Shown here in pieces: positions 50 to 19,636 of a DNA stretch of 19,889 nt. Position 1 is the stretch's first letter. Each line of letters opens with the position of its first letter. This stretch comes from a virus: UHGV virus genome UHGV-0130218; one strand, given 5' to 3'. The notes beneath the pieces were generated by a model. The model did not search any database, was not told the origin of the DNA, and was given only the letters and a program-made list of their open reading frames with translations. Position numbers and translations under genes: made by a program.

Positions 50-349
50 CTACTTCGAAGAAAGGGCAAGTTTGCGCACAGTCGTCAGGAAATTGAATGG
101 GGTTGAATCCCACAACTCAGGTGAAAAATCAAATCCATACCGGCTTTTGAACTCCTCATCCAGCCTGTCTCCGTAAAGCACAAGGAAAGAATCGACCTCT
201 TCGGCTAACTCTTTTAACATCCAGTCGGGAGCTGTTTTTTTATAGAGTTCAACAGTGCCTTCAATAGTATCCTCTCCCTCATTTATGAGGTCATGATCCT
301 GATTGAAATAACCCTGAATCAGCTGATCAAGATGATAGAAACTTTGCAT
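50..349 (-). CDS. Putative immunity protein of the adjacent toxin-like ORF
   Basis: 99-aa ORF that starts 12 nt downstream of the toxin-like ORF on the same strand. Small, acidic (D/E-rich), no catalytic motif, as is typical of immunity partners of nuclease toxins. Family not assignable by eye. Confidence 0.45.
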   Translation of the reverse strand: MQSFYHLDQLIQGYFNQDHDLINEGEDTIEGTVELYKKTAPDWMLKELAEEVDSFLVLYGDRLDEEFKSRYGFDFSPELWDSTPFNFLTTVRKLALSSK

Positions 350-361
350 AATCCACCTGTC

Positions 362-1207
362 CTATGGGGTCGGGAATGCTGTAAGGATATAGTAAGGTTT
401 TCCGTTATACTCTTGCAATTCGATAACAATCCTCACTCCACGCATGCTGATGCGCTGTGTGCTGCCTCGCGTGAATCCATACCCAACCTCCTGACCGGCA
501 GAATAATTGATGGTAAGGCGTCCACCAATTTTACCACCTCCGAGTAACGATTTGATATTTGCCCGGTTAAGATAGACCGCCCTCGAAATAACATTTTCAG
601 CAACATTTAAGTCTTTAAACGTTGAAGACATAACAAGTCGCTTATTTTTCTCGAATCGGGCAAGTAACTCACTGTCAGTTTTTCCGACATGATTTGCGAG
701 TGTATGGCCGCCGGGTTTAAGACCCGTAACTGATTCATGCTGGATCAATTTGATGCGACCAGCTTTAATTGCAGCTACACGGACGGCACCAATAGCAGCT
801 GCAAATCCAAGCGGAACGGCTATATCAACTGTCATGCCGATATTGAGGGCGGTGTCTTCATCGGCACCAAGTTCTCTTGCCGCGCTTACAGCAATTTGCC
901 AGGTGGCTGAGCGCGTATCACGACCGGTTATTAGCTGTCTGGCTGCGCTTTGAACAGCGTCAAGACTATGTGCACCAACAACCACACATCCCGCTTTCGT
1001 TAGTCCTGTTGGTTCTGGCGCGATACATAGTGCCGTGGCACCGGCCATTTCTACCGCTCCGAGTAAAACGCCAAGTCCCCCCAACAGTCGGTTACTCAGC
1101 GTTTCCGCCTCTGTAATGCTTTTATCTGAAAGCACCGCCGCCAGCTGTACCGGTGACATAACAACGACCATTCCACCTTCTTCCATAACAGTATCCCATC
1201 CCTCCAT
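362..1207 (-). CDS. Putative polymorphic-toxin-like protein (Gly/Ala-rich pre-toxin segment ending in TG plus C-terminal nuclease-like domain)
   Basis: 281-aa ORF. N-terminal part has a Gly/Ala-rich hydrophobic segment (LLGGLGVLLGAVEMAGATALCIAPEPTGL...AARQLITG) resembling pre-toxin TG domains. C-terminal ~130 aa carries GGHTLANHVGK (His-x4-His-x2-Lys), reminiscent of EndoU/RNase-type toxin domains. No secretion or delivery domain is present, and the upstream frame closes 17 codons before the ATG. Confidence 0.5.
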   Translation of the reverse strand: MEGWDTVMEEGGMVVVMSPVQLAAVLSDKSITEAETLSNRLLGGLGVLLGAVEMAGATALCIAPEPTGLTKAGCVVVGAHSLDAVQSAARQLITGRDTRSATWQIAVSAARELGADEDTALNIGMTVDIAVPLGFAAAIGAVRVAAIKAGRIKLIQHESVTGLKPGGHTLANHVGKTDSELLARFEKNKRLVMSSTFKDLNVAENVISRAVYLNRANIKSLLGGGKIGGRLTINYSAGQEVGYGFTRGSTQRISMRGVRIVIELQEYNGKPYYILTAFPTP

Positions 1208-2505: not shown

Positions 2506-2754
2506 ATGTATGATCAGTCTTTCAATCCGCGCACACTCTCACGATGTTTCAAACCTGAGGATTTCCATAAAAATAGAGCATTAAGTCTAGACAGTGTTCG
2601 AGAAAAGACTATTAACTCGGCTATCGAAAGATATAAGGATGGGTTCTTGGGTTATAATTTACGCTCATCCGTTTTAAGAGGGAAAACAGTATATTGGGCC
2701 GATGAGTTAGCTGATGTATTGGTCTTGAGGAAAATTAAAAAAAAATTTATCTAA
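2506..2754 (+). CDS. Reverse transcriptase, N-terminal (fingers) segment; frame ends inside an A9 tract
   Basis: ATG with RBS agga 8 nt upstream. 82 codons encoding ...GYNLRSSVLRGKTVYWADELADVLVLRKIKKK, consistent with RT motifs 1/2. Stops at 2752-2754, just after the A9 run at 2737-2745. Confidence 0.6.
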   Translation: MYDQSFNPRTLSRCFKPEDFHKNRALSLDSVREKTINSAIERYKDGFLGYNLRSSVLRGKTVYWADELADVLVLRKIKKKFI

Positions 2755-2845
2755 GCTATATCAATTAAGATTACCTTCTCGAACAAAGATTGTTGATACA
2801 TTAAAGGTTTTTTTATCAGAGTGTTCACAGTATAAAATATACAGA

Positions 2846-3769
2846 TTGGATATATTTTCATTTTATGAATCTTTCGATAAAAACTATATATTTAATAAAA
2901 TAGATGGATTGGAGCGGTTAGAGCTTAAAACAAAGCAGGTTCTAAAGGAATTTCTTTATTCATTCTATCTGAATGGTGGGCAAGGAATACCAAGAGGATT
3001 GTCAATCAGTGCATACTTGGCAGAGTTACTAATGTATGATTTCGATAATCAAGTGAAAGATAACCACTCTGTTTTTTATTATGCTAGGTATGTAGATGAT
3101 ATAGTTATTGTCACTAGTGGTTACGAAGATAGTGATGCTTTTATTGAGAATGTAAAATCAAACCTTCCAAATGGATTGCGTTTTAATGAAGGGAAGAAAT
3201 ATTATATTAGCGATTTAATTCCAAAATCTTCCAAAAAAACAAACCGTGCACCCTCCAAAAAATTGTTATCCTTTGAATATTTAGGGTACGATTTTAGCGT
3301 GGGAGATAAAATTGAAGAGTGCAATATAAGAGGATTCTATAGGGTAATTGAAATTGATCTTGCACATGCAAAGGCTAATAAAGTAAAAAGTAGAGTGATT
3401 TATTCGATTGTTGATTTTAATAAAACCAATGATTTTGAGTTGCTATGTGAAAGACTAAAATTCCTGTCCACAAACTTTAGTGTTTTAGATTCAGATAGAG
3501 TATTAAAACGGTTGTCGGGCATTCATTTTAATTATCCTCTTATTGATGCTAAATCTTCTAAGCGCCTTGCTGAACTTGATGTGTTTTTAAGAAAGGCTGT
3601 ATTATCATCTAGTGGTAAGGTTTTCTTTGATTTTCATGCGAACTTAAACCAATGCAAAAAATATCGATTACTTAAGATTAGTTTTGTTAGAGGCCATGAG
3701 AAACGTCATTTTTTTCATTATTCAGCTTCAAAAATGATGAAAATTCAAAGGTGTTGGAAATATGTCTAA
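2846..3769 (+). CDS. Reverse transcriptase, palm/thumb segment (the frame is open from 2729, so it is likely continuous with 2506-2754 after a +1 shift)
   Basis: RT motif A YRLDIFSFYESFDKNYIF, motif B QGIPRGLSISAYLAELLMYDFD, motif C YYARYVDDIVIV, motif D/E LRFNEGKKYYIS. No ATG or GTG precedes these motifs in this frame; the ORF track uses TTG at 2846. AT-rich. Confidence 0.8.
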   Translation: MDIFSFYESFDKNYIFNKIDGLERLELKTKQVLKEFLYSFYLNGGQGIPRGLSISAYLAELLMYDFDNQVKDNHSVFYYARYVDDIVIVTSGYEDSDAFIENVKSNLPNGLRFNEGKKYYISDLIPKSSKKTNRAPSKKLLSFEYLGYDFSVGDKIEECNIRGFYRVIEIDLAHAKANKVKSRVIYSIVDFNKTNDFELLCERLKFLSTNFSVLDSDRVLKRLSGIHFNYPLIDAKSSKRLAELDVFLRKAVLSSSGKVFFDFHANLNQCKKYRLLKISFVRGHEKRHFFHYSASKMMKIQRCWKYV

Positions 3770-5714
3770 AAAAAAGGAAGTAAGAGTTAATAAAAAAGAT
3801 TTTAATAGGGTTTTAGTTACTGAAACCATACCCTATGAAACGCCTATAATAGTGTCCAATGATGGTTTTTATAACAATGTAGTTAAATATACAACGGCCA
3901 ATGATACTGCTAAGGTATTGATTCAAAGAATAATTCTAGGGGAAAAGAAGAAAGGTAGGTATACGATTCCCTATGTTTTTAAAATTAATAAAAATGAGAC
4001 GGAGTTTCGACGTTTAGCCTTTCCACACCCCATATCTCAGATTGAAATGCGGGATTTTTATCTCCATTTTAATCAAATGATGATCAATTTTTGTTCCCGT
4101 AGTGATTTTTCTATTCGGCGACCGGTGAAGGTTGCAAGTACATATTATTATAAGAACTTATTGGAAGACAAGAATTTATATAAGAGAGGGCCTGTTGATA
4201 CCGACAAAAATGAACTATTAACTCGGCATGCTTCTTCATATTTTGGCTATCACGGATATGATCGCCTGTATAAGTTCTTTATGTCTAATGAGTTTATTGA
4301 CCTTGAGCGTAAATATAATACGCTATATACATTAGATGTTTCAAAATGTTTCGACAGTATCTATACTCATTCAATTTCTTGGGCTGCAAAAACCAAGACT
4401 TTCATTAAAGGGATGTTAGCTAATAAATCATTAAACTTTGGTGATGCTTTTGATAAATTAATGCAACGTTGCAACTTTAACGAAACCCATGGTGTAATTA
4501 TCGGTCCAGAAATTAGTCGAATATTCGCTGAGGTTATATTTCAAAAAATAGATTTAAATGTTCAGTTTAAATTAAATAATATCGAGCCATCGATACGTAA
4601 GGGTATCGATTATGATATTCGCCGTTATGTTGATGATGTTTTTATTTTTGCTAAAAATGAAACTAATGCCGAAATTATATATAAGATTTACACTGATAAA
4701 CTGAATGAATATAACATGCATATAAATTTGGGTAAAGTAACAAAAAACACTCGACCTTTTATCACAGCAAAAACGCAAATTATACATCACGTCAATCAAA
4801 GAATGAATTTATTTATTGAATCTTTTCTTGGTTATGATGATGAAATGAAATTAATCGCAAAGCCAATATATAACAATAGGAAGTTAGCTAACAAATTTAT
4901 AGATGAGGTGAAAATAATATGTGCTGAAAATAATGCGGGATATGGTGAGGTTGCTTCTTATATTGTGTCGGCGATTTTTGAAAGAATTAAAAGATTAACT
5001 TCTTCAGTTAATCAAGTCGAAGATAAAGATATATACAATGCAATGTATGTTTTGCTCCATATTTCATTGTTCTTTTTCAGAGTTGCTCCGTCTGTTAGTT
5101 CATCATATAAATTGGCTTCAATACTTATCGTGGCTCTCAGATATTTTAAGGCTAAAGTACCATCATACAGTGAGCTTATAGCATCATATGTTTATTTTGA
5201 AATTGAAGACTTTCTTAAATCTGCTAATACTAGCAAAGTAGCCATAGATAATCTAATTAGTCTTGAGGCATATAATATTATGTATGTTATAGGTGAGCTA
5301 GATCAAGAACGATATTTATCAAAACAGTTGATTGAGAACATTTTTAGTGAAGTTGATTCTTATTTTGATATAGTGTCCTGTCTATATATCGTAAAGGATA
5401 AGAAAGTTTATAATACACTTAAAAATAAAATTATTGATATTATTAACTCCAAGTTAATGTCAAGTGATAGTATTTTGGATTATAGTGAAAAGGCAATGCT
5501 CTTTTTGGATGTTATGTCTTGCCCTTATATTGATTTAAAATGGAAAAAAATATGGTTGAAATCAACTTTAAAAGAATTGCAAGAAGCTACTCCTAACAAT
5601 GAAAAAATAGATAGTTTTATCAGTTATTCTGTAGCGAATCCTTGGTTTGTGGACTGGAGTAATGTCGATCTTTTGAATTTCTTAGAAAAAAAACAATTGA
5701 AAAAAGCCTATTGA
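3762..5714 (+). CDS. Reverse transcriptase with long alpha-helical C-terminal extension (UG/Abi-type, defence-associated RT-like)
   Basis: 650 aa. Motif A YTLDVSKCFDSIYTHSI, motif B HGVIIGPEISRIFAEVIF, motif C RRYVDDVFIFAKN, followed by ~300 aa of predicted helical sequence. Its ATG overlaps the upstream RT stop by 8 nt, indicating translational coupling. AT-rich. Confidence 0.85.
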   Translation: MSKKKEVRVNKKDFNRVLVTETIPYETPIIVSNDGFYNNVVKYTTANDTAKVLIQRIILGEKKKGRYTIPYVFKINKNETEFRRLAFPHPISQIEMRDFYLHFNQMMINFCSRSDFSIRRPVKVASTYYYKNLLEDKNLYKRGPVDTDKNELLTRHASSYFGYHGYDRLYKFFMSNEFIDLERKYNTLYTLDVSKCFDSIYTHSISWAAKTKTFIKGMLANKSLNFGDAFDKLMQRCNFNETHGVIIGPEISRIFAEVIFQKIDLNVQFKLNNIEPSIRKGIDYDIRRYVDDVFIFAKNETNAEIIYKIYTDKLNEYNMHINLGKVTKNTRPFITAKTQIIHHVNQRMNLFIESFLGYDDEMKLIAKPIYNNRKLANKFIDEVKIICAENNAGYGEVASYIVSAIFERIKRLTSSVNQVEDKDIYNAMYVLLHISLFFFRVAPSVSSSYKLASILIVALRYFKAKVPSYSELIASYVYFEIEDFLKSANTSKVAIDNLISLEAYNIMYVIGELDQERYLSKQLIENIFSEVDSYFDIVSCLYIVKDKKVYNTLKNKIIDIINSKLMSSDSILDYSEKAMLFLDVMSCPYIDLKWKKIWLKSTLKELQEATPNNEKIDSFISYSVANPWFVDWSNVDLLNFLEKKQLKKAY

Positions 5715-5880
5715 ATTGCTAATTTGTTGTTGAAGCAACCAATATGCCCTACACGATTTTTCGATATACTAGGGCTGATTACGGTAGGTAAGTTGCATGT
5801 AACCTGGCCTACCTTATGACGCTCAAGAGCAGAAATGCACACACTAAGGGATGAGGTTGCTTCAACCCCTTTTATTTTCT
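5715..5880 (+). ncRNA. Candidate structured non-coding RNA downstream of the RT operon
   Basis: 5729-5740 GTTGAAGCAACC and 5855-5866 GGTTGCTTCAAC are perfect reverse complements (12 bp), enclosing ~115 nt with internal stems such as 5784-5789 GGTAGG / 5808-5813 CCTACC. A T-rich tail follows. No ORF. Confidence 0.35.
5848..5880 (+). terminator. Putative intrinsic terminator for the RT operon
   Basis: Stem GGTTG-CTT-CAACC at 5855-5867 followed by CCTTTTATTTTCT. The int stop codon (5862-5864 on the minus strand) lies in the loop. Confidence 0.4.
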
Positions 5881-7058
5881 ACAAAATTCCCCCACCACAG
5901 CATCAGCTCTACTCTTTGTTGCAAATAGACAGAGCGGTTGTATGCTCTTCGTACCTCATTCTTATCAGAATGAGCTAGTGCTGCTTCAATGACGTCTGGA
6001 TTAAATCCTTCTTCATTAAGCGTCGTGCTAGCTATCGAGCGTAAGCCATGAGCAACTAGCTTCCCATTCCAGCCAACTCTTTTTAGTGCAGCATTAGCCG
6101 TCTGGCTATTCATAGCTTTCTTAGGGTCATTTCTACTTGGAAAAACATGATCACGGTGCTTACTGATGGGTGCCATGATCTCAAGAATATAAAGCGCCTG
6201 AGGAGATAGAGGAATTAAATGTTCACGCTTCGCTTTCATCCTTTCGGCGGGGATTGTCCAGAGTTTTGAGTCGAGATCGATCTCTTCCCACCTGGTACCG
6301 GAGGCTTCAGAAGGGCGTACAAGGGTTAGGAGTTGCCACTCAATTAGACAGCGAGTAGGAACAGACAGATTTGACATAACCAAAGAACGCATCAGACTTG
6401 GTAATTCTTCTGGTCTAAGCGTAGGCATATTTTGCTTTTTAGGCCTCTCAAAAGCCATTCCAACTCCTGAGGTTGGGTTTGCGTCAATCAAGCCGGTATT
6501 TACCGCGTAAATCATAATCTCATTAATACGCTGTACCAGACGACGAACAGTCTCCAGAGCACCACGCGCTTTGATTGGCTCTAATGCTTCAACAATTGTT
6601 CTGGCCTTAATCTCCTGAACAGGTATCGTGCCTATTGCAGGGAAAACGTCCTTGTCTAAAGATCGCCAAATATCTTTTGCATAGTCTTCGGTGACGCTTT
6701 TGCTCTTCATTTTGAACCAGTTGGTGGCCACAGTTGAGAAAATGCTATCCAGCTCTATCTGACGCTTTTCTGATGCATGCTCTTGTTGCTGTTGTGGATC
6801 CATATCTAGCGCGAGCATGGTTAAGTGCTGGTCGCGTATCTGACGAGCTGCTGCGAGTGTAAAGGCAGGGTATGAGCCGAGACTCAAATTTGTGCGGCTG
6901 CTGCTTCCCGGTCGTTGATAACGGAAGCGCCAGAGTTTTTTGCCGGAGGTTTTTACGAGTAAGAACAGGCCATCACCATCATGCAGGGTGAAGTCTTTTT
7001 CGCGGGGTTTTGCTTTGAGGATTTCGTTGTTAGTGAGGGGGCGTGTAATGCGCGCCAT
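5862..7058 (-). CDS. int: P4-type tyrosine integrase
   Basis: 398 aa. N-terminus LTNNEILKAKPREKDFTLHDGDGLFLLVKTSGKKLWRFRYQRPG is typical of P4-family integrase arm-binding domains. The C-terminal catalytic region has HGLRS...LAHSDKNEVRRAYNRSVYL (R, H-x-x-R, Y). RBS aggga upstream. It is adjacent to a tmRNA 3' fragment, as with CP4-57 intA. Confidence 0.9.
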   Translation of the reverse strand: MARITRPLTNNEILKAKPREKDFTLHDGDGLFLLVKTSGKKLWRFRYQRPGSSSRTNLSLGSYPAFTLAAARQIRDQHLTMLALDMDPQQQQEHASEKRQIELDSIFSTVATNWFKMKSKSVTEDYAKDIWRSLDKDVFPAIGTIPVQEIKARTIVEALEPIKARGALETVRRLVQRINEIMIYAVNTGLIDANPTSGVGMAFERPKKQNMPTLRPEELPSLMRSLVMSNLSVPTRCLIEWQLLTLVRPSEASGTRWEEIDLDSKLWTIPAERMKAKREHLIPLSPQALYILEIMAPISKHRDHVFPSRNDPKKAMNSQTANAALKRVGWNGKLVAHGLRSIASTTLNEEGFNPDVIEAALAHSDKNEVRRAYNRSVYLQQRVELMLWWGNFVENKRG

Positions 7059-7311: not shown

Positions 7312-8172
7312 TCAAATAAATTTGTTTTTCCATGTCTCGTATCTTTTACGTATCCTTTGAAGTAGTAATGCCGTCCAGCTAAGGCCGTGAGAGAATGTTA
7401 GATTAAAAGTTGCTTCCACTGTATCTCCACGTATTGAGAATCTATTTATCCGATATTCAGTAGAAAAAAACTCTTTTTTTGTTGTTCCAGAGATTTCTTC
7501 ATATTCAATTAATAAAACAGGCCCATCTATTTGAGTTAACATATTTTCATGGAGGCTGATTTTATCCAAGAGGTAGTTAGATAATAGTGTCGGTATTAAT
7601 GTGGGGATGTGAAGATTTACCTCTTCTTTGTTAACGCTCCAAGGGAGAATATAAACAACATCAGAATATTGTTCTTCATGAGAATACCATTTGGATTGAC
7701 CAAAACCTAATAATGAAATGTAAGTGTGACCTTGTTTGTCTAATTGATAACAGTATTCATTAGCCATCATGGCTGCTTTGTAACCTTTGGTGTCAAAGGT
7801 ATGTTCATCGTCTAGTTTTTTTATTTTATTTAACAAAAAATGTTTTTCGTAATTGAATATCCATTGGTATTTGAATTTCAACGCTGGGCCTAGACCAACA
7901 TTTAATATTGGCAGGGTGGGATTGTTGTTTTTTGATATAGCATCAAAAACACCTTTGTTTACTATTTTTGTTTTATCAATTTTTATTTTTACATCTTTAG
8001 TGATTATCTGTACTTTGTTTGATAACTTTCTTTGGATAACAGTTTGCCTTATAGCTAAATAAGCAGCAATTGCTGATAAAGCACTTGCTGTCAAACCACC
8101 ATATCCGAGCCATGCGGGGTCTGCCATATCGAAGTATTCCTGCCTTATAACAAGGCAGGAATTATTTCTCAA
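7312..8172 (-). CDS. Hypothetical membrane-anchored protein; AT-rich moron between the lambdoid int and the att core
   Basis: 286-codon ORF with a TTG start; a more likely ATG start at 8127 gives MADPAWLGYGGLTASALSAIAAYLAI, a predicted N-terminal transmembrane helix. The ~240-aa soluble domain has no motif I recognise. Strongly AT-rich compared with the neighbouring int. Confidence 0.6.
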   Translation of the reverse strand: MRNNSCLVIRQEYFDMADPAWLGYGGLTASALSAIAAYLAIRQTVIQRKLSNKVQIITKDVKIKIDKTKIVNKGVFDAISKNNNPTLPILNVGLGPALKFKYQWIFNYEKHFLLNKIKKLDDEHTFDTKGYKAAMMANEYCYQLDKQGHTYISLLGFGQSKWYSHEEQYSDVVYILPWSVNKEEVNLHIPTLIPTLLSNYLLDKISLHENMLTQIDGPVLLIEYEEISGTTKKEFFSTEYRINRFSIRGDTVEATFNLTFSHGLSWTALLLQRIRKRYETWKNKFI

Positions 8173-9344
8173 TTCTTCACATTGTTCAAGGATGTGATCG
8201 ATGAGTTGTTATCATAATCTTTCAAATAGCGTCCGTAATGACGAAAGAGCATCTCAGGTCCTTTGTGGCCCATCTGCGCAGCCAGCCAAAATAAGTTTAC
8301 ACCGCAGCTTATCATACGTGTGGCGAATGTATGCCTTGTCTGATAAGGATTACGGTACCTGATACCGGCTTTCCGGAGCGTAGGAACCCAGGCTTTTTTC
8401 CTAATGGCGTCCGCGCTGGCCCATGGCTTGTTTGTCTTCGGATCTTCAAAGACACAACCATTCTTCATGAAGCTAAAGGGCTTTTGTTCGTTTAGAGCAA
8501 TCATCGCTTCCTCGGTTAACTCAACCTTGCGTGTTCCTGCCTTCGTTTTCGTACCTTTCGTCACGCCAGAGACGCTGGCGCTCTGTACATGAGCCGTCTT
8601 CTCAACGAAGTCAATGTCCCTCCAGCGTAGTGCGCAAAGTTCCGAACTGCGTAGACCTGTCTGAAGCGCAAATCTGAATAAGTTCTCCCATTGCTTATTA
8701 CCCGCTGATTTTAACAGCGCGCTTACCTCTGCTGGAGATAGTGGATCAACAATATAAGTACTTTCCTCGTCACTTTTTTTGCTTTGATATCGTGAAGCTG
8801 TTACCTGTGACACTGGATTAATTTGTAAAACACCATCAGTTACAGCTTCATCAAGTGAGGAACGAAGAAACGACAACTGGTTACGTATCGTCTTCAATGT
8901 TGTTTTCTGATTCTGAATCCATGTTTTTAATGCTGCTGGCGTTAACTCACTGGCCGGGAAAATGTGAAGTTCAGACAGTGCGCTACGGCATTTTTTATAC
9001 CCGCCAATGGTGGAGGGGGAAAGATTCCTCGTTTCGCAAATCTTCAGGTACTCATCAAGATACATTTTCACTGTTTTCCCGGTCGCAGCATTACCGAAAA
9101 TTTTTAACCTCACCGAACGAGGGAAATATTCAGCATAGATAAATGTTCCACGCTCGATTTTGTTGTGGATTTCGCCGAGCATACGCTCGGCATATTTAAG
9201 GTTTTTGTTGTTCACTTCTAGATTTGAAAGGGGTTCTCTGCATTTCACCCCCTTGTATGTGAACGTAATATTGATGGTTTCACCACTGCTGTGCTTCCTG
9301 ATGGTTACACCACGTGGGAGTTTAGGCGATTCTTTCGTGCCCAT
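8169..9344 (-). CDS. int: Phage tyrosine integrase (lambdoid type)
   Basis: 391 aa. C-terminal catalytic region RNPYQTRHTFATRMISCGVNLFWLAAQMGHKGPEMLFRHYGRYL (R...H-x-x-R...Y). Its start overlaps the xis-like ORF. Confidence 0.9.
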   Translation of the reverse strand: MGTKESPKLPRGVTIRKHSSGETINITFTYKGVKCREPLSNLEVNNKNLKYAERMLGEIHNKIERGTFIYAEYFPRSVRLKIFGNAATGKTVKMYLDEYLKICETRNLSPSTIGGYKKCRSALSELHIFPASELTPAALKTWIQNQKTTLKTIRNQLSFLRSSLDEAVTDGVLQINPVSQVTASRYQSKKSDEESTYIVDPLSPAEVSALLKSAGNKQWENLFRFALQTGLRSSELCALRWRDIDFVEKTAHVQSASVSGVTKGTKTKAGTRKVELTEEAMIALNEQKPFSFMKNGCVFEDPKTNKPWASADAIRKKAWVPTLRKAGIRYRNPYQTRHTFATRMISCGVNLFWLAAQMGHKGPEMLFRHYGRYLKDYDNNSSITSLNNVKN

Positions 9345-13371: not shown

Positions 13372-14031
13372 TTAAATATTCTGGGTTATCTGAACAACTT
13401 TACCGACAATCCGGCAATTTCCATCTATCGGTATAGGTTTGAAGGCAGGATTAAGCGGCATCAGATACGCGAAAGGGCTATCCCAGACGAGTTTTTTCAC
13501 TGTTGCTTCAGCAGAGCCATCAAGTATCGCCACGACTATTTTCCCGTAAAGGTCATCCAGTTGGCCATAGTGTGGTTCAACTATTACGATCGACCCTTCG
13601 GGTATGGATGGTAGACCATGTGGGTTAGTCATCGATTCCCCACGAACAACCAGGCCGAATACTTCATCAGAAACGTTTGCAGTGGTTTGCGTCCATGAAA
13701 TCACATCAGAAAGCCTTGAGCATGCGTAAGTATCAGTCCACGTCCCTGCCTGGACAGCAGAGATAATTGGAACTGCCTTAGGGGGCTTGAGAAAGGGGAT
13801 CACTTTGGTGTCATCCTGCGCTTCATCTCCTTTCCCGTAGAGAATCCATTCAGGCGTGGTTTGCAACGCCATCGCCAGCTGATGGAGGTTCTCACCATCA
13901 GGCTTCGTGTTACCGCTCTCCCATTTAGTAACGGACACGCGGCTAACACCTAGGCGTTTAGCTAGGGTCTGCTGCGTTATATCGAGCTGGACTCGACGGG
14001 ATCTTATTCGGTCTTTCATCTCTGTTTTCAT
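13372..14031 (-). CDS. cI: CI-type phage repressor (HTH plus S24 LexA-like peptidase domain)
   Basis: 219 aa. N-terminal HTH QQTLAKRLGVSRVSVTKWESG. C-terminal GESM (Ser nucleophile) and ATVKKL (Lys) motifs. Divergent from the cro-like gene. Confidence 0.85.
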   Translation of the reverse strand: MKTEMKDRIRSRRVQLDITQQTLAKRLGVSRVSVTKWESGNTKPDGENLHQLAMALQTTPEWILYGKGDEAQDDTKVIPFLKPPKAVPIISAVQAGTWTDTYACSRLSDVISWTQTTANVSDEVFGLVVRGESMTNPHGLPSIPEGSIVIVEPHYGQLDDLYGKIVVAILDGSAEATVKKLVWDSPFAYLMPLNPAFKPIPIDGNCRIVGKVVQITQNI

Positions 14032-14094
14032 GTAACCAATGTTACATTGATTCCTTGTAACTGTTGTTTGCTATTTGATGTACCTTTTGTTACC
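14032..14094. promoter_or_regulatory. OR-like operator region between cI and cro
   Basis: Inverted half-sites TGTAAC-N4-GTTACA at 14031-14046, gtaactgttg at 14055-14064, and atgtaccttttgttac at 14078-14093. RBS aggagg at 14113-14118 precedes cro. Confidence 0.45.
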
Positions 14095-14123
14095 TTTAAG
14101 GCGTGAGTTAACTAGGAGGAGCC

Positions 14124-14312
14124 ATGCGTAAATCACAAGTTATTGAGCACTTTGGCGGAGTATCAAAAACCGCCAGTGTTCTTGGGATCTCCCATCCGGC
14201 TGTTTGCCGATGGGGAGAGGTTATTCCTCAGAAGCAAGCGTTCGTTATCGAACGAATTACTGAAGGCAAGCTTAAGTACGACGCCAGCCTTTATCAGAAG
14301 CCTACAGATTAG
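14124..14312 (+). CDS. cro: Cro-type small HTH repressor
   Basis: 62 aa. VIEHFGGVSKTASVLGISHPAVCRWGEVIPQKQAFVIERITEGKLKY resembles P22-type Cro as I recall it. Divergent from cI, with a strong RBS. Confidence 0.8.
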   Translation: MRKSQVIEHFGGVSKTASVLGISHPAVCRWGEVIPQKQAFVIERITEGKLKYDASLYQKPTD

Positions 14313-15070: not shown

Positions 15071-15250
15071 ATGCGCGAAGTTAACCGAAGGTTCAAAGAC
15101 CACAGAGGGATCCCCGTTCGGGTTATCCGGTGGGAGCCAGAGACTCAACGAGTTATCTACCTGCGGGATGGTTATAACCACGAATGTTTCAGCCCGCTCG
15201 AACAATTTAAGCGCAAGTTTACAGAGTTAAAGGACGACCATGAGCACTAA
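15071..15250 (+). CDS. Small conserved phage protein (59 aa), below the ORF-track size cutoff
   Basis: ATG at 15071 with GAAGG upstream. Encodes MREVNRRFKDHRGIPVRVIRWEPETQRVIYLRDGYNHECFSPLEQFKRKFTELKDDHEH, a balanced protein-like composition. It overlaps the next gene start and lies fully inside the low-complexity 14850-15230 frame. Confidence 0.4.
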   Translation: MREVNRRFKDHRGIPVRVIRWEPETQRVIYLRDGYNHECFSPLEQFKRKFTELKDDHEH

Positions 15251-16103
15251 ATTAACGGGTTACGTTTGGGACGCTTGTGCCGCTTCTGGCATGAAGCTGT
15301 CCAGCGTTGCCATCATGGCGCGTCTGGCAGACTTCAGCAGTGATGAAGGGGTTAGCTGGCCTTCCATCGCTACCATTGCGCGCCAGATTGGTGCCGGTGA
15401 GAGCACGGTTCGCACAGCCATATCTCAACTGGAAAAAGACGGGTGGTTAACCCGTCAGCAGCGCCGTAAAGGCAACCGCAATGCATCGAACGTTTACCAG
15501 CTTAATGTTGCGAAATTACAGGCTGCTGCCTTTTCTCACCTGTCAGATTCTGACGCATCAAAATCTGATGCCTCAAAAACCGACGCGTCAAAATCTGAGG
15601 CATCAAAAAACGATGAAAAAGGCGGTTTTCACCCGTCAGAATCTGGGGGGGATCCGTCAGTAAATACAACTACTGATCCATCAGATAAAAAACATTCTTG
15701 TCCGGTTGCTGCGCAACCCGACCCTGTGGTGGTTATCACCGATCAGGCGAAGCAGGTTTTATCACATCTGAACAAGACCACTGGTTCACGGTATCAGGTC
15801 TGCAAATCGTCCTTGGAAAACATCCGGGCTCGCCTGGCTGACGGGTTTACGCCCGATGAGCTGCTGTTGGTGGTGGATTACAGCGTCGAGAAGTGGGGCG
15901 AGGATCTGAAAATGGCCGAATACCTGCGCCCAACAACGTTGTTTTTGCCATCTAAATTCCCAGGTTACCTGCAATCCGCAAATAAGTGGAACGCAGCAGG
16001 ACGCCCAGAACGACAGTACTGGGGCTCAATTCGTAAGCATGATCCGATGAAATTTGGTGGGCCAGATAAAGCCATCCCAGCTGGCTTCAGGGGAGCGAAA
16101 TGA
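15240..16103 (+). CDS. Replication initiator (lambda O-like; N-terminal winged-HTH, C-terminal phage replication-protein domain) with internal repeats
   Basis: 287 aa. N-terminal HTH-like segment VSWPSIATIARQIGAGESTVRTAISQLEKDGWL. Central (S/T)DASK pentapeptide repeats encoded by 15-bp tandem repeats. Position after cro/cII as for lambda O. Confidence 0.65.
   Translation: MSTKLTGYVWDACAASGMKLSSVAIMARLADFSSDEGVSWPSIATIARQIGAGESTVRTAISQLEKDGWLTRQQRRKGNRNASNVYQLNVAKLQAAAFSHLSDSDASKSDASKTDASKSEASKNDEKGGFHPSESGGDPSVNTTTDPSDKKHSCPVAAQPDPVVVITDQAKQVLSHLNKTTGSRYQVCKSSLENIRARLADGFTPDELLLVVDYSVEKWGEDLKMAEYLRPTTLFLPSKFPGYLQSANKWNAAGRPERQYWGSIRKHDPMKFGGPDKAIPAGFRGAK
15549..15608 (+). repeat. Four tandem 15-bp repeats inside the O-like gene; candidate origin iterons
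   Basis: tctgacgcatcaaaa / tctgatgcctcaaaa / accgacgcgtcaaaa / tctgaggcatcaaaa, in frame (coding SDASK-like repeats). Analogous to the lambda ori iterons, which lie within O. Confidence 0.5.
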
Positions 16104-16999
16104 TGAGCATGAATGCTGATAACAAATATTGCCGCGCGCTGGCTGAACTTCGCTCAAAGCCAGCGCATGAATTGAAAGAGGTTGGCGATCAGTGGCGCAC
16201 TCCGGATTTGTTGTTTTGGGGCATCAATTCGATATTTGGGCCGATGGTTCTGGATCTGTTTGCAGACGATAGCAATGCTAAATGCCCTGCATGGTATACC
16301 GCCGAAGATAACGCGCTGACGCAGGATTGGTCAGTGCGTCTGGCAGAACTCGGTGGCGCCGCGTTTGCAAATCCGCCTTATAGCCGTTCTCAGTACCATG
16401 AAAAGCAGGCCATCACTGGCATGACCCACATCATGAATCACACAATGGCGATGCGTGATAAAGGTGGTCGTTACATATACCTCGTGAAGTCAGCCACAAG
16501 TGAAACATGGTGGCCGGAGGATGCCGATCACATCATGTTTATTCGTGGTCGTATTGGGTTCGATCTTCCTGTTTGGTTTGTTCCCGCTGACGAGAAGCAG
16601 CAACCCACCAGCGCATTTTTTGCCGGGGCAATCGCTGTCTTTGACAAAACCTGGCGTGGTGAAAGCTTCAGCTATATCAATCGCACCGAACTGGAAGAAA
16701 AAGGGCGAGCAGCATTGTCATTGGCTCAATTCGCCGCGGCAAAAATGGCCCTTCCGTCCGTGCCGGAAAAAGCAATGCCTACTGCCATTGCAACGCCTGA
16801 TGCAGAGTCGCGCATCTGGCCGCTGGAGGTTGGTCTGGTATTCAATCAGCTCGAGGGGGCGGATTCTCTGGAGGTGAACCAACAGAACAAGTTGAAGGCC
16901 AACATCAACCAACTCTGGCTGGAGCGTGTGCCTACCAGCGAAATAATTAGCGTGGCTGGTGGTCTGATTAGCAGCATGCAGGGGGCCGTCAATGCGTGA
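16100..16999 (+). CDS. Phage N6-adenine DNA methyltransferase (Dam-type)
   Basis: 299 aa. N-terminal WRTPDLLFWGINSIFGPMVLDLFADDSNAKCPAWYT and catalytic motif FANPPYS. Overlaps the upstream gene by 4 nt and the downstream gene by 8 nt. Confidence 0.7.
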   Translation: MMSMNADNKYCRALAELRSKPAHELKEVGDQWRTPDLLFWGINSIFGPMVLDLFADDSNAKCPAWYTAEDNALTQDWSVRLAELGGAAFANPPYSRSQYHEKQAITGMTHIMNHTMAMRDKGGRYIYLVKSATSETWWPEDADHIMFIRGRIGFDLPVWFVPADEKQQPTSAFFAGAIAVFDKTWRGESFSYINRTELEEKGRAALSLAQFAAAKMALPSVPEKAMPTAIATPDAESRIWPLEVGLVFNQLEGADSLEVNQQNKLKANINQLWLERVPTSEIISVAGGLISSMQGAVNA

Positions 17000-18929
17000 A
17001 ATCATCGTTGATAACTTTGCCGGTGGTGGCGGCGCGAGTACCGGCATTGAACTGGCCATCGGGCGTAGCGTGGATATCGCTATCAACCACGACGAAAACG
17101 CTATTGCGATGCATAAGACGAATCACCCTGACACGCTGCATTATTGCGAGTCGGTGTTTGACGTTGACCCAAGCGCAGCCACCAGCGGTAAACCTGTCGG
17201 TCTGGCCTGGTTTAGCCCTGACTGCCGCCACTTTTCCAAAGCTAAGGGCGCTAAGCCGGTTAAGAAAGAGATTCGCGGGCTGGCGTGGATTGTTCTGCGC
17301 TGGGCGCTGGCAGTACGTCCCCGCGTCATGATGCTGGAGAACGTCGAAGAATTTAAGACATGGGGCCCGCTGCTGGATGAAGAATTACGCCCGGATCCTG
17401 AGCGTGCTGGTGAAACATTCGAGGCATTTGTCGGCATGCTGTCGACTGGTATCGCGGCGAATCACCCAGCACTGGCTGAGGTTTGCGAATTTCTTGCCAT
17501 TGAGCCGCACGGCCAGCAGGCGCAACAGCTGATCGCTGGGCTTGGCTATGAGGTCGATTATCGTGAGCTGCGCGCTTGTGATTACGGCGCGCCGACGATC
17601 AGAAAGCGTTTCTTCATGGTCATGCGCTGTGACGGCCGCAAGATTCATTGGCCTGAAGCGACTCATGGGGATCCAAAATCACTGGAAGTACAAAGCGGCA
17701 AGCTGGCGCCATGGCGTACCGCGGCGGAGTGCATTGACTGGAATATCCCGGCCCGGTCCATCTTCGACCGCAAAAAGCCGCTGGCGGAAAATACGCTCAA
17801 ACGTATCGCGCGCGGCATCCAGCGCTTTGTTATCGAAAGCGCATCGCCTTTCATCGTGAAGTGTAACCACACCACGACGAAAGGAGGTTATGACTGTTTC
17901 CGCGGGCAATCGTTGTTAGAGCCATTGCAGACCATCACTAAAAAGCATGGCTACGCGCTGGCGGTACCGCATCTTACTAAATTCCGCACCGGGGCCACCG
18001 GGCAGCCAGTGACCGAGCCGGTACCAACTGTCACCGCTGGTACGTCGGCTCGCCCGGGCGGTAATGGGCATGCGCTTGGCGTAGTTGAGGCCGCGCTGAC
18101 ACCGTTCCTGGCGGGCAATGGCGGCAGTGAGTACCAGGCAAAGCCGCGCCCGCTGGATAAACCCGCTCATACAATCCTCAAGCAGTCCCGCGCGTGTGTG
18201 GTTGCTCCTGTCATCGCCCGCCAGTTTGGTGCCAGTGTTGGGCACAGGGCAGACGAGCCTAGCGCAACGATTACTGCTGGCGGTGGCGGTAAATCGCAGC
18301 TGGTAACCCCAACACTGATCCAGATGGGATACGGCGAACGCCCAGGGCAAGAACCGCGTGTTCTTCAACTGAATAACCCGCTCGGCACGGTCACTGCTGG
18401 TGGTAATAAGTTTGCGGCGGTGAGCGCGTTCCTGGCGAAGCACTATGGTGGGAATTACTCGGGGCCGGGTGTTGGTATGGATGAGCCTGCCCACTCAGTC
18501 ACTACCGTTGATCATCACGCGGTAGTTGCGTCGCACCTGGTGAAGCTGCGCGGAACCTGCCGCGACGGTCAGACCATGGATACACCTATGCCGACGATTA
18601 CCGCTGGTGGCCAGCACGTTGGCGAGGTCCGGACATTCCTCGAAACCTACTGCGGTGAAAGCGAGGATGAATGGCTGGTGACGATCGAAGGAGTTAAGTA
18701 CCAGATCATCGATATCGGAATGCGCATGCTGCAACCGCATGAGCTTTATAAGGCGCAGGGCTTCCCTGACGGCTACGTTATCGATCAGGACTATCGCGGC
18801 AATCGTTACGCCAAAGACAAGCAGGTAGCGCGCTGCGGTAACGCAGTACCGCCGCCGTTCGCTCGTGCGCTGGTAGAGGCAAATCTTCCTGAATTATGTG
18901 CAAATCAAAAGGCGGGTGCAGCCGCCTGA
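16992..18929 (+). CDS. C5-cytosine DNA methyltransferase with an expanded repeat-containing variable region
   Basis: 645 aa. Motif I FAGGGG, motif IV region FSPDCRHFS, motif VI MLENV, C-terminal ARCGNAVPPPFA. The central region holds about seven ~36-aa modules, each with a P-x-x-T-(I/V)-T core. Confidence 0.85.
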   Translation: MREIIVDNFAGGGGASTGIELAIGRSVDIAINHDENAIAMHKTNHPDTLHYCESVFDVDPSAATSGKPVGLAWFSPDCRHFSKAKGAKPVKKEIRGLAWIVLRWALAVRPRVMMLENVEEFKTWGPLLDEELRPDPERAGETFEAFVGMLSTGIAANHPALAEVCEFLAIEPHGQQAQQLIAGLGYEVDYRELRACDYGAPTIRKRFFMVMRCDGRKIHWPEATHGDPKSLEVQSGKLAPWRTAAECIDWNIPARSIFDRKKPLAENTLKRIARGIQRFVIESASPFIVKCNHTTTKGGYDCFRGQSLLEPLQTITKKHGYALAVPHLTKFRTGATGQPVTEPVPTVTAGTSARPGGNGHALGVVEAALTPFLAGNGGSEYQAKPRPLDKPAHTILKQSRACVVAPVIARQFGASVGHRADEPSATITAGGGGKSQLVTPTLIQMGYGERPGQEPRVLQLNNPLGTVTAGGNKFAAVSAFLAKHYGGNYSGPGVGMDEPAHSVTTVDHHAVVASHLVKLRGTCRDGQTMDTPMPTITAGGQHVGEVRTFLETYCGESEDEWLVTIEGVKYQIIDIGMRMLQPHELYKAQGFPDGYVIDQDYRGNRYAKDKQVARCGNAVPPPFARALVEANLPELCANQKAGAAA

Positions 18930-18943
18930 TATGGAGAAATAGC

Positions 18944-19636
18944 ATGAATCAGTTAACCGCAAAGGGTGTTGTGACAATGTCCAGCCGTGAAATTGCCAAG
19001 CTGGTGCAGAGCAAACATGGTGATGTGAAGCGCTCAGCTGAGCGCCTTGCTTCTGCTGGTATTTTAACCGCGCCGTTGGCGCACACCCCCTACACACACC
19101 CGCAAAATGGGCAAACCTACGAGGAGTATTGGTTCAACAAACGTGATTCTCTGGTGATCGTCGCCAGGTTGTCGCCAGAATTTACCGCCGCTGTTGTCGA
19201 TCGCTGGCAAGAGCTGGAGAACAGCCAGGCCGTAAGTGTCCCGCAAACATTGCCGGAGGCATTACGTCTCGCCGCGGATCTGGCCGAGCAGAAAGAACAA
19301 CTCAGCCAGCAGTTAGCCGCTGCCGCGCCGAAAGTTGAGTTTGTCGATCGGTATTGTACTGCTAAAGGCTCAATGTCTTTCCGCCAGGTGGCAAAGCTGT
19401 TGCAGGCCAAAGAGACCGATTTCCGCTTGTTCCTCATTGAGAGCGGCATTTTGTACCGGCTCAGTGGAGTGCTGACACCGCGGCACCAGCACATTGCTGC
19501 CGGGCGGTTTGAAGTGAAAACTGGCACTACGAGCGAAACAAACTACGCCTTTAGCCAGGCACGTTTTACACCCAAAGGCATCGAGTGGATCGGCGGCCTG
19601 TGGACGGCACACATCGCTAAGGGGCATGCCGCGTGA
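18944..19636 (+). CDS. Phage antirepressor-like protein (Rha/Ant N-terminal plus KilA-C-like C-terminal domain)
   Basis: ATG at 18944 preceded by ggaga; the upstream TTG extension would overlap the methyltransferase gene. N-terminal SSREIAKLVQSKHGDVKRSAERL resembles Rha/Ant. C-terminal VDRYCTAKGSMSFRQVAKLL...FRLFLIESGILYR resembles the KilA-C/ANT domain. Confidence 0.65.
   Translation: MNQLTAKGVVTMSSREIAKLVQSKHGDVKRSAERLASAGILTAPLAHTPYTHPQNGQTYEEYWFNKRDSLVIVARLSPEFTAAVVDRWQELENSQAVSVPQTLPEALRLAADLAEQKEQLSQQLAAAAPKVEFVDRYCTAKGSMSFRQVAKLLQAKETDFRLFLIESGILYRLSGVLTPRHQHIAAGRFEVKTGTTSETNYAFSQARFTPKGIEWIGGLWTAHIAKGHAA

Follow-up and report, generated by a model that had tools for sequence, protein, structure and literature searches.

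What does a prophage gain from an adenine and a cytosine methyltransferase gene placed back to back, and are the two proteins no more than neighbours? The question is raised by a stretch of 19,889 nucleotides (nt) of the UHGV virus genome UHGV-0130218 (the window, in whose coordinates all positions are given unless another record is named), in which open reading frame (ORF) 1 (16100-16999 (+), 299 amino acids (aa), or 298 aa from the second ATG) is followed by ORF2 (16992-18929 (+), 645 aa). According to our best explanation, which as a whole we consider probable, sequence features identify ORF1 and ORF2 as two orphan DNA methyltransferases (N6-adenine and C5-cytosine, respectively) of a lambdoid prophage from an Enterobacter-type host. 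A methyltransferase pair as such is an ordinary, well-known class of phage module, given that such pairs are frequent in Enterobacter-type prophages and that annotations of these genes already exist in hundreds of Enterobacter genomes. The interest of this locus lies in a short tail domain of ORF1 that, in adenine methyltransferases of three families, is almost always linked to the C5 gene, and in the cassette-like repeat array of ORF2, a member of a very large C5 family.

Two overlapping methyltransferase genes

Both ORFs are long and have strong family matches, which argues against their being chance reading frames. They overlap by 8 nt (16992-16999, reading ATGCGTGA), such that the ORF2 start lies within the final codons of ORF1, with AGGGGG positioned 8-9 nt 5' of this start. 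The prediction of a FANPPYS-bearing adenine methyltransferase overlapping a large C5 methyltransferase by 8 nt is therefore borne out by the ORF coordinates, the overlap sequence, the Pfam matches and the motifs.

The only Pfam match of ORF1 is to PF05869 "Dam" (E 2.3e-44, 151.5 bits against a cut-off of 28.1), and it covers the catalytic domain (aa 23-203, 16166-16708 (+)). This domain contains AAFANPPYS (NPPY at aa 91-94, 16370-16381), WRTP (16193-16204) and LDLFAD (aa 51-56, 16250-16267), the last of which aligns with LDAAAS of phage T1 Dam. In a four-sequence alignment N91, P92, P93 and Y94 are invariant, and both the catalytic motif and the cofactor-binding acidic motif are present. T1 Dam is specific for GATC; ORF1 is only 27% identical to it over 151 aa, and this specificity is thus not transferable to ORF1. 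The label "Dam-type" in the original prediction therefore stands in the sense of the Pfam name, with PF05869 being a phage family separate from that of E. coli Dam; beyond that name it does not hold, with 27% identity to T1 Dam and no similarity to the Dam half of phage P1 Dmt. No solved structure related to ORF1 was found. We rejected the classification of ORF1 as a non-specific enzyme like M.EcoGII or Hia5, which are of the beta and alpha classes, respectively, and do not belong to PF05869. We also rejected a fusion with a "PAPS reductase" (phrog_33262, and the annotation of E. coli phage Flotzy), since in the Flotzy protein Pfam finds only Dam, besides a 145-aa insert and the tail. The Flotzy protein in question (L001:3861-5195, "phosphoadenosine phosphosulfate reductase") has no such domain and consists of a PF05869 methyltransferase, the 145-aa insert and the tail; its label seems to be inherited from phrog_33262.

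ORF2 matches Pfam PF00145 (E 2.1e-20) and has the C5-methyltransferase motifs in canonical order: I (DNFAGGGG), IV (SPDCRHFS), VI (ENV), VIII (TIRKR), IX (QGFPDGY) and X (GNAVPP). Motif IV (17214-17237 (+)) includes the catalytic Cys78, preceded by Asp rather than Pro; SPDC is the family norm, being found in 142 of 145 family representatives. An AlphaFold model has a predicted local distance difference test (pLDDT) score above 90 for aa 1-290 and 570-640 and adopts the fold of a C5 catalytic domain, with Foldseek top matches to 3g7u, DNMT1/MET1, M.HaeIII and M.HhaI (E 3e-11 to 1e-7). This model was built with 136 diverse sequences; an alignment of 60 close homologues gave a pLDDT of 42.8. Certain ORF2 relatives (P0251, P0306, P0328, P0375, P0387 and others) harbour an intein (Hint with or without LAGLIDADG) exactly at the catalytic Cys of motif IV (...WFSPD/CFPAGT...VVHN/CKHFS, slashes marking the junctions).

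The tail of ORF1 and the repeat array of ORF2

ORF1 is a fusion protein, in which the PF05869 domain is followed by a linker and a C-terminal tail of ~60 aa (aa 237-299, SRIWPLEV...NKLKANINQLWLE..., 16808-16996 (+)). The tail begins at a mosaic boundary: matches in E. coli phages and genomes start at query nt 706 (ORF1 aa 236) and continue through ORF2 at 95% identity, which indicates that the last ~60 aa of ORF1 were inherited with ORF2 and not with the Dam domain. The tail motif (vWPxEV..F.Q....L...LqnKL+..INrLwLe..P..eII..A..L..M) is the sole similarity of ORF1 to an MT-A70-type protein (E 7e-15) and to a PF01555-type protein (E 4e-11), both of which are likewise positioned 5' of a C5 gene. 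Adenine methyltransferases from three unrelated families (PF05869, PF01555 and MT-A70) carry this tail, which also occurs as a free-standing protein of ~85 aa. A tail profile search recovered 848 proteins, the top matches being mostly free-standing "hypothetical proteins" of 85-86 aa; free-standing tail proteins are encoded in Enterobacter, Citrobacter, Klebsiella, Salmonella and E. coli. Profile searches of the tail against Pfam and the PDB found no relative.

We surveyed 80 viral contigs that encode ORF2 relatives at 66-100% identity, 79 of which have intact upstream sequence. By profile search, the tail is encoded immediately 5' of the C5 gene in all 79 of these loci, either fused to a larger protein (43/79) or free-standing (36/79). 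The junction between tail and C5 gene is a 4-nt overlap in 34 loci, an 8-nt overlap in 23, a gap of 1-2 nt in 19, and a 13-nt overlap in 3. An earlier BLAST count, according to which 48 of the 79 loci were unpaired, was discarded because BLAST had missed free-standing tail ORFs that the profile search found. An adenine methyltransferase is paired with the C5 gene in 36 of the 79 loci. In the reverse direction, the C5 gene is the next gene after the tail in 65 of 73 tail-bearing loci. We infer from this linkage that the tail works together with the C5 enzyme; it may serve in docking, in DNA binding or in the coupling of expression. The C5 enzyme of Pectobacterium phage ZF40 starts with MSIWPTEV... 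and has a weak tail-profile match (independent E-value 0.008), a hint at a direct fusion of a tail-like sequence to the N-terminus of a C5 enzyme.

The large size of ORF2 is due to an array in which seven units, each 32-49 aa long, follow one another in tandem (aa 307-566, 17910-18689 (+)), located in the interval between motifs VIII and IX. Every unit opens with PxxT[IV]T, with a TAGG continuation in four of the seven, and a beta-hairpin is predicted in each (AlphaFold). A hidden Markov model (HMM) of the unit matches all seven (E 1e-8 to 4e-5), and profile matches of unit against unit, down to E 7e-8, separate two subtypes. DNA-level repeats within the array are weak (69-79% over 18-26 nt), which suggests that the array is old and did not arise by recent duplication. 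Close homologues of ORF2 (78-99% identity) have lengths of 605, 609, 626, 644, 659, 680 and 690-698 aa, and differ by in-register gains and losses of whole units as well as by hybrid units.

The same modularity is seen across the wider family. An exhaustive search recovered 8,617 ORF2 relatives, including 2,589 at E <= 1e-30 (clusters at 50% identity). According to the unit HMM, the 150 best representatives contain 1-12 units each (most often 7), and protein length is correlated with unit number (r = 0.70). Unit types are variably combined across these representatives, with a conserved pair (types C and E) nearest motif IX. The array sits at the position of the target-recognition domain; by analogy with multispecific enzymes, it may widen or multiply the range of methylated sequences, a step that we consider less likely than not. 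To our knowledge there are no known target sequences for this C5 family, and we found no description of its repeat array or of the tail in the literature covered, which included the older key papers only in part.

Operon context and proposed role

The window has the layout of a prophage, with an integrase gene (8169-9344 (-)) followed by early-left genes. The immunity region 5' of the operon is defined by a CI-type repressor with helix-turn-helix (HTH) and S24 peptidase domains (13372-14031 (-); Pfam Peptidase_S24 E 3e-22, HTH_3 E 3.4e-15). Operator-like GTAAC/GTTAC half-site repeats are present at 14040-14100 in the interval between the repressor gene and cro, such as the palindromic ATGTAACcaatGTTACAT just 5' of cro. 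The first gene of the rightward operon encodes a Cro-like protein (14124-14312 (+); PF14549 P22_Cro, on the called gene of the same contig), and the plus-strand order continues with a CII-like protein, an O-like replication initiator (HTH_36 and Phg_2220_C; 15240-16103 (+)), ORF1, ORF2 and an antirepressor, Ant (Rha and KilAC; 18944-19636 (+)). The stop codon of the initiator gene overlaps the ORF1 start (ATGATGA). Sequence scans found neither a plus-strand terminator-like site between cro and ORF2 nor an internal plus-strand promoter-like site in the operon. The gene order, the overlapping junctions and the uninterrupted run from cro to ORF2 all agree with the predicted early-right operon.

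A metagenome contig of 156 kb, which continues past the window, also encodes the exact ORF2 protein. On this contig the pair is followed by Ant, DUF968, Q, two small ORFs, a PF01555 methyltransferase (354 aa), holins and terminase. The PF01555 enzyme, encoded between Q and the holins at L006:15841-16905, ~5.9 kb past ORF2 and outside the window, is a third prophage methyltransferase with a weak internal HTH match, and its counterpart at that place in Stx2c phages shares 81% identity with it. Close homologues of ORF1 and ORF2 are annotated in Enterobacter cloacae-complex genomes, including ORF1 homologues of 95-100% identity annotated as "phage N-6-adenine-methyltransferase" in Enterobacter spp.

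Neither the window nor the next 10 kb of the same contig contains a recognised endonuclease family; the absence of a cognate endonuclease near the pair, as originally claimed, thus extends past the window, where the discovery of one would have spoken against an orphan status. The gene immediately after ORF2 encodes the antirepressor and not an endonuclease, and the only nuclease-like neighbour is DUF968/YdfU, two genes 3' of ORF2 (phrog_96 "HNH endonuclease"; weak HNHc_6 match, E 0.0024). DUF968 is encoded in 167 phage records, some of them of Stx2, mEp460 and ST64B types, which do not appear in the set of records with this C5 gene, and in only 24 of 50 related loci with full flanks; it is therefore better regarded as a generic lambdoid gene of the region 5' of Q than as a cognate enzyme.

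The most likely role of the pair, by analogy with Bacillus phage and M.EcoGII-type enzymes, would be anti-restriction protection of phage DNA (PMC12707154; PMC5778455). Orphan methyltransferases of phages protect exported DNA and are silent in lysogens, and those of Bacillus phages have tandem recognition domains (PMC12707154; PMC5778455; PMC8936443). Judging from gene order, induction or infection would lead to transcription of the rightward operon, and translation would proceed from the initiator to ORF1 and then ORF2 by coupling across the observed overlaps of stops and starts. The two proteins would be made only after induction or infection, during phage DNA replication, and as members of their respective families they would methylate adenine and cytosine on the replicating phage DNA, to which the third, late-operon PF01555 enzyme may contribute. 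Progeny DNA methylated before packaging would then be protected in the virion from methylation-sensitive restriction in the next host.

The position of the genes directly after the replication initiator, to which they appear to be translationally coupled, is also what would be expected if the enzymes served transactions on the phage's own DNA (control of replication, recognition of the packaging site, evasion of mismatch repair or the timing of gene expression). P1 dmt is also part of a repressor-controlled operon; in the P1 model, GATC methylation by Dmt is needed for pac cleavage in dam- hosts, and many orphan methyltransferases may regulate viral cycles (review, PMC12707154). However, the C5 gene is dispensable in near-identical operons (an E. 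coli Nissle 1917 prophage and 8/73 tail-bearing loci), the adenine domain is replaceable or even absent, leaving only the free tail in 36/79 loci, and the turnover of the array by whole units looks like a response to external diversifying pressure and not like fixed housekeeping. The third methyltransferase, encoded before the lysis genes, likewise fits a protective arsenal, and we consider an own-DNA role unlikely. Expression in the lysogen, by which the pair would act as an epigenetic moron and reshape the host methylome, is very unlikely: it is a general possibility, with some signal also expected from a subpopulation induced spontaneously, but both genes are 3' of cro in an operon that the CI-type repressor should silence, the scan detected no internal promoter-like site from which they could be transcribed separately, and comparable prophage methyltransferases are reported to be silent in lysogens (PMC5778455). 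The suggestion that the pair could alter the methylome of a lysogen is thus doubtful. More improbable still is that the pair belongs, as its modification part, to a restriction-modification or similar defence system with its nuclease elsewhere in the prophage. The phrog_96 and HNHc_6 matches of DUF968 would make it a candidate for that nuclease, and in Citrobacter phage phiNP an "antitermination protein Q" of 355 aa, which has the size and position of DUF968 and is identified by annotation, is encoded directly 3' of the C5 gene. Against this, DUF968 occupies its usual place 5' of Q and is not specifically associated with the C5 gene, PADLOC assigns ORF1 and ORF2 to methyltransferase models only, and a nuclease from the same induced operon would not police DNA entering a lysogen.

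A more specific arrangement can also be proposed, in which the functional unit is not "Dam plus Dcm" but consists of the ~60-85 aa tail domain as a required partner of the C5 enzyme (for docking, DNA loading or coupled expression) together with a modular C5 methyltransferase. The tail would have been repeatedly welded to three families of adenine methyltransferases, giving a non-covalent complex for two-base methylation, and the 1-12 units of the array would serve as recognition cassettes, forming a much larger Gram-negative counterpart of the multispecific enzymes of Bacillus phages. We regard this arrangement as speculative, and as a whole rather doubtful. Several observations count against our best explanation or parts of it. 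The tail occurs without a C5 gene in 8/73 loci and in the Nissle 1917 prophage, with RusA or Ant as the next gene; it may therefore function without the C5 enzyme, and the absolute statement that it occurs only with this enzyme was rejected. In motif IV, Asp-Cys replaces the canonical Pro-Cys, so that ordinary C5 chemistry is assumed. The array is modelled with low confidence (pLDDT 40-65), the unit profile has no significant match in the PDB, including any solved C5 methyltransferase, and the unit HMM scores ~0 bits on the SPR, rho11s and H2 enzymes, with no homology of the units to characterised recognition domains demonstrable; the sole likeness to these Bacillus proteins is a 24-aa BLAST match to the last Bacillus unit (46% identity, E 0.003 in a three-sequence search). 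A simple promoter scan also found no consensus sigma-70 site for PR.

The lack of a significant profile match to characterised recognition domains would also fit the array being a single enlarged DNA-binding domain, or one with inactive "pseudo" units, that recognises a single target or a relaxed short target. The heads and hairpins are alike between units, and because types C and E beside motif IX are conserved where the others vary, this core pair might do all of the recognition. In contrast, the many natural in-register deletions and hybrids that keep the frame are as expected of separable modules, unit types retain type-specific conserved sequences across representatives at <=50% identity, and the head pattern xPxxT[LIV]T is common to the tandem recognition domains of SPR, rho11s and H2. 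A single domain is a serious candidate, to which we give somewhat less than an even chance.

If the units of the array are exchangeable recognition modules, temperate phages of Enterobacteriaceae, Pseudomonas and others could owe to them a broad evasion of restriction, and the C5 family could yield programmable tools for 5-methylcytosine (5mC). The strict linkage of tail and C5 gene makes the hypothesis of an accessory subunit concrete and directly testable. Such enzymes also influence which clinical Enterobacter and Klebsiella a phage can infect, and have to be considered when nanopore methylomes of induced cultures show 5mC signals.

Further features were noted elsewhere in the window. A DRT type 3 defence system of low guanine-cytosine (GC) content (~31%) is located at 2506-5714 (+), with an intact Drt3b (3762-5714, E 1.7e-223) and an apparently split Drt3a, the two parts of which (2506-2754, profile positions 1-80; 2846-3769, positions 114-416) are in different frames; the split could reflect a frameshift or a pseudogene, or could stem from faulty assembly. 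Next to it are two different tandem tyrosine integrases, at 5862-7058 (-) and at 8169-9344 (-), one with Arm-DNA-bind_3 and one with Arm-DNA-bind_2, which suggests that a small DRT3 defence island was inserted beside the prophage. The lower-GC stretch between the integrases encodes a 286-aa protein (7312-8172 (-)) whose only match is phrog_7259 (unknown function), with none in Pfam, PADLOC or the PDB; it may be a lysogenic-conversion or defence gene. A 281-aa ORF at 362-1207 (-) has a C-terminal bacterial CdiA-CT RNase A toxin domain (E 3.7e-33), and the 99-aa ORF 3' of it (50-349 (-)), which has no family match, could be a candidate immunity gene. No tRNA gene was found in the window.

Comparison with known systems

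Pairing of an adenine methyltransferase with a C5 enzyme of this kind recurs among phages: apart from the 36/79 related viral loci, it is seen in Citrobacter phage phiNP, in two E. coli phages (Flotzy and Eeyore) and in Pseudomonas phage F116. The order of replication gene, Dam and C5 gene is the same in the isolated phages phiNP, Flotzy and Eeyore, as is the 8-nt overlap. In F116 (L095, 1360-5077), an adenine methyltransferase, a C5 methyltransferase with eight units and a further adenine methyltransferase follow one another with overlaps of 4 nt, and no tail was detected, which indicates that the pairing of adenine and cytosine enzymes reaches distant phages with other organisation.

Among adenine methyltransferases, T1 Dam shares the WxTP, D-x-x-A and NPPYS motifs with ORF1 and lacks its additional ~95 aa (linker and tail). 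M.EcoGII (beta class) and Hia5/Hin1523 (alpha class) are orphan enzymes of prophages; they are silent in lysogens, and protection of exported DNA is their presumed role (PMC5778455; PMC3299994). They belong to families other than that of ORF1, which has neither the beta-class organisation nor the PF01555 domain of the M.EcoGII type. The third, PF01555 enzyme of the prophage agrees with M.EcoGII in size and position, a likeness drawn from the description of M.EcoGII only. P1 Dmt resembles ORF1 and ORF2 in that adenine and cytosine methyltransferases form a single expression unit under repressor control. However, Dmt is one polypeptide of 754 aa in which a C5 half precedes an alpha-class Dam half, whereas here there are two proteins with the adenine enzyme first. 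Homology with Dmt was rejected, as ORF1 has no significant similarity to it and ORF2 has similarity at the level of motifs only (motif IX), and neither protein is bifunctional in the manner of Dmt.

For ORF2, the best sequence and fold match to the catalytic domain among solved structures is the putative DNA methyltransferase of prophage CP-933R (PDB 3g7u), which, unlike ORF2, is 376 aa long, has the canonical PPCQ and lacks a repeat array. The closest parallel to the array is provided by M.SPRI, M.Rho11sI and M.H2I of the Bacillus SPbeta group, which like ORF2 are orphan C5 enzymes of temperate phages with short tandem modules between motifs VIII and IX. ORF2 differs from these enzymes in its Gram-negative hosts, its partner tail gene and the absence of a significant unit-profile match to them, as well as in motif IV (SPDC, versus SPCQ in SPR) and in having seven units of 32-49 aa, versus about three or four in the Bacillus enzymes. 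Nevertheless, the module heads follow xPxxT[LIV]T in both (sPT[LI]TT in Bacillus), the last Bacillus unit (EPAFTVNTIDRHGVA) resembles unit 6 of ORF2 (EPAHSVTTVDHHAVVA), and the number of modules varies among relatives in the Bacillus enzymes as it does in the ORF2 family.

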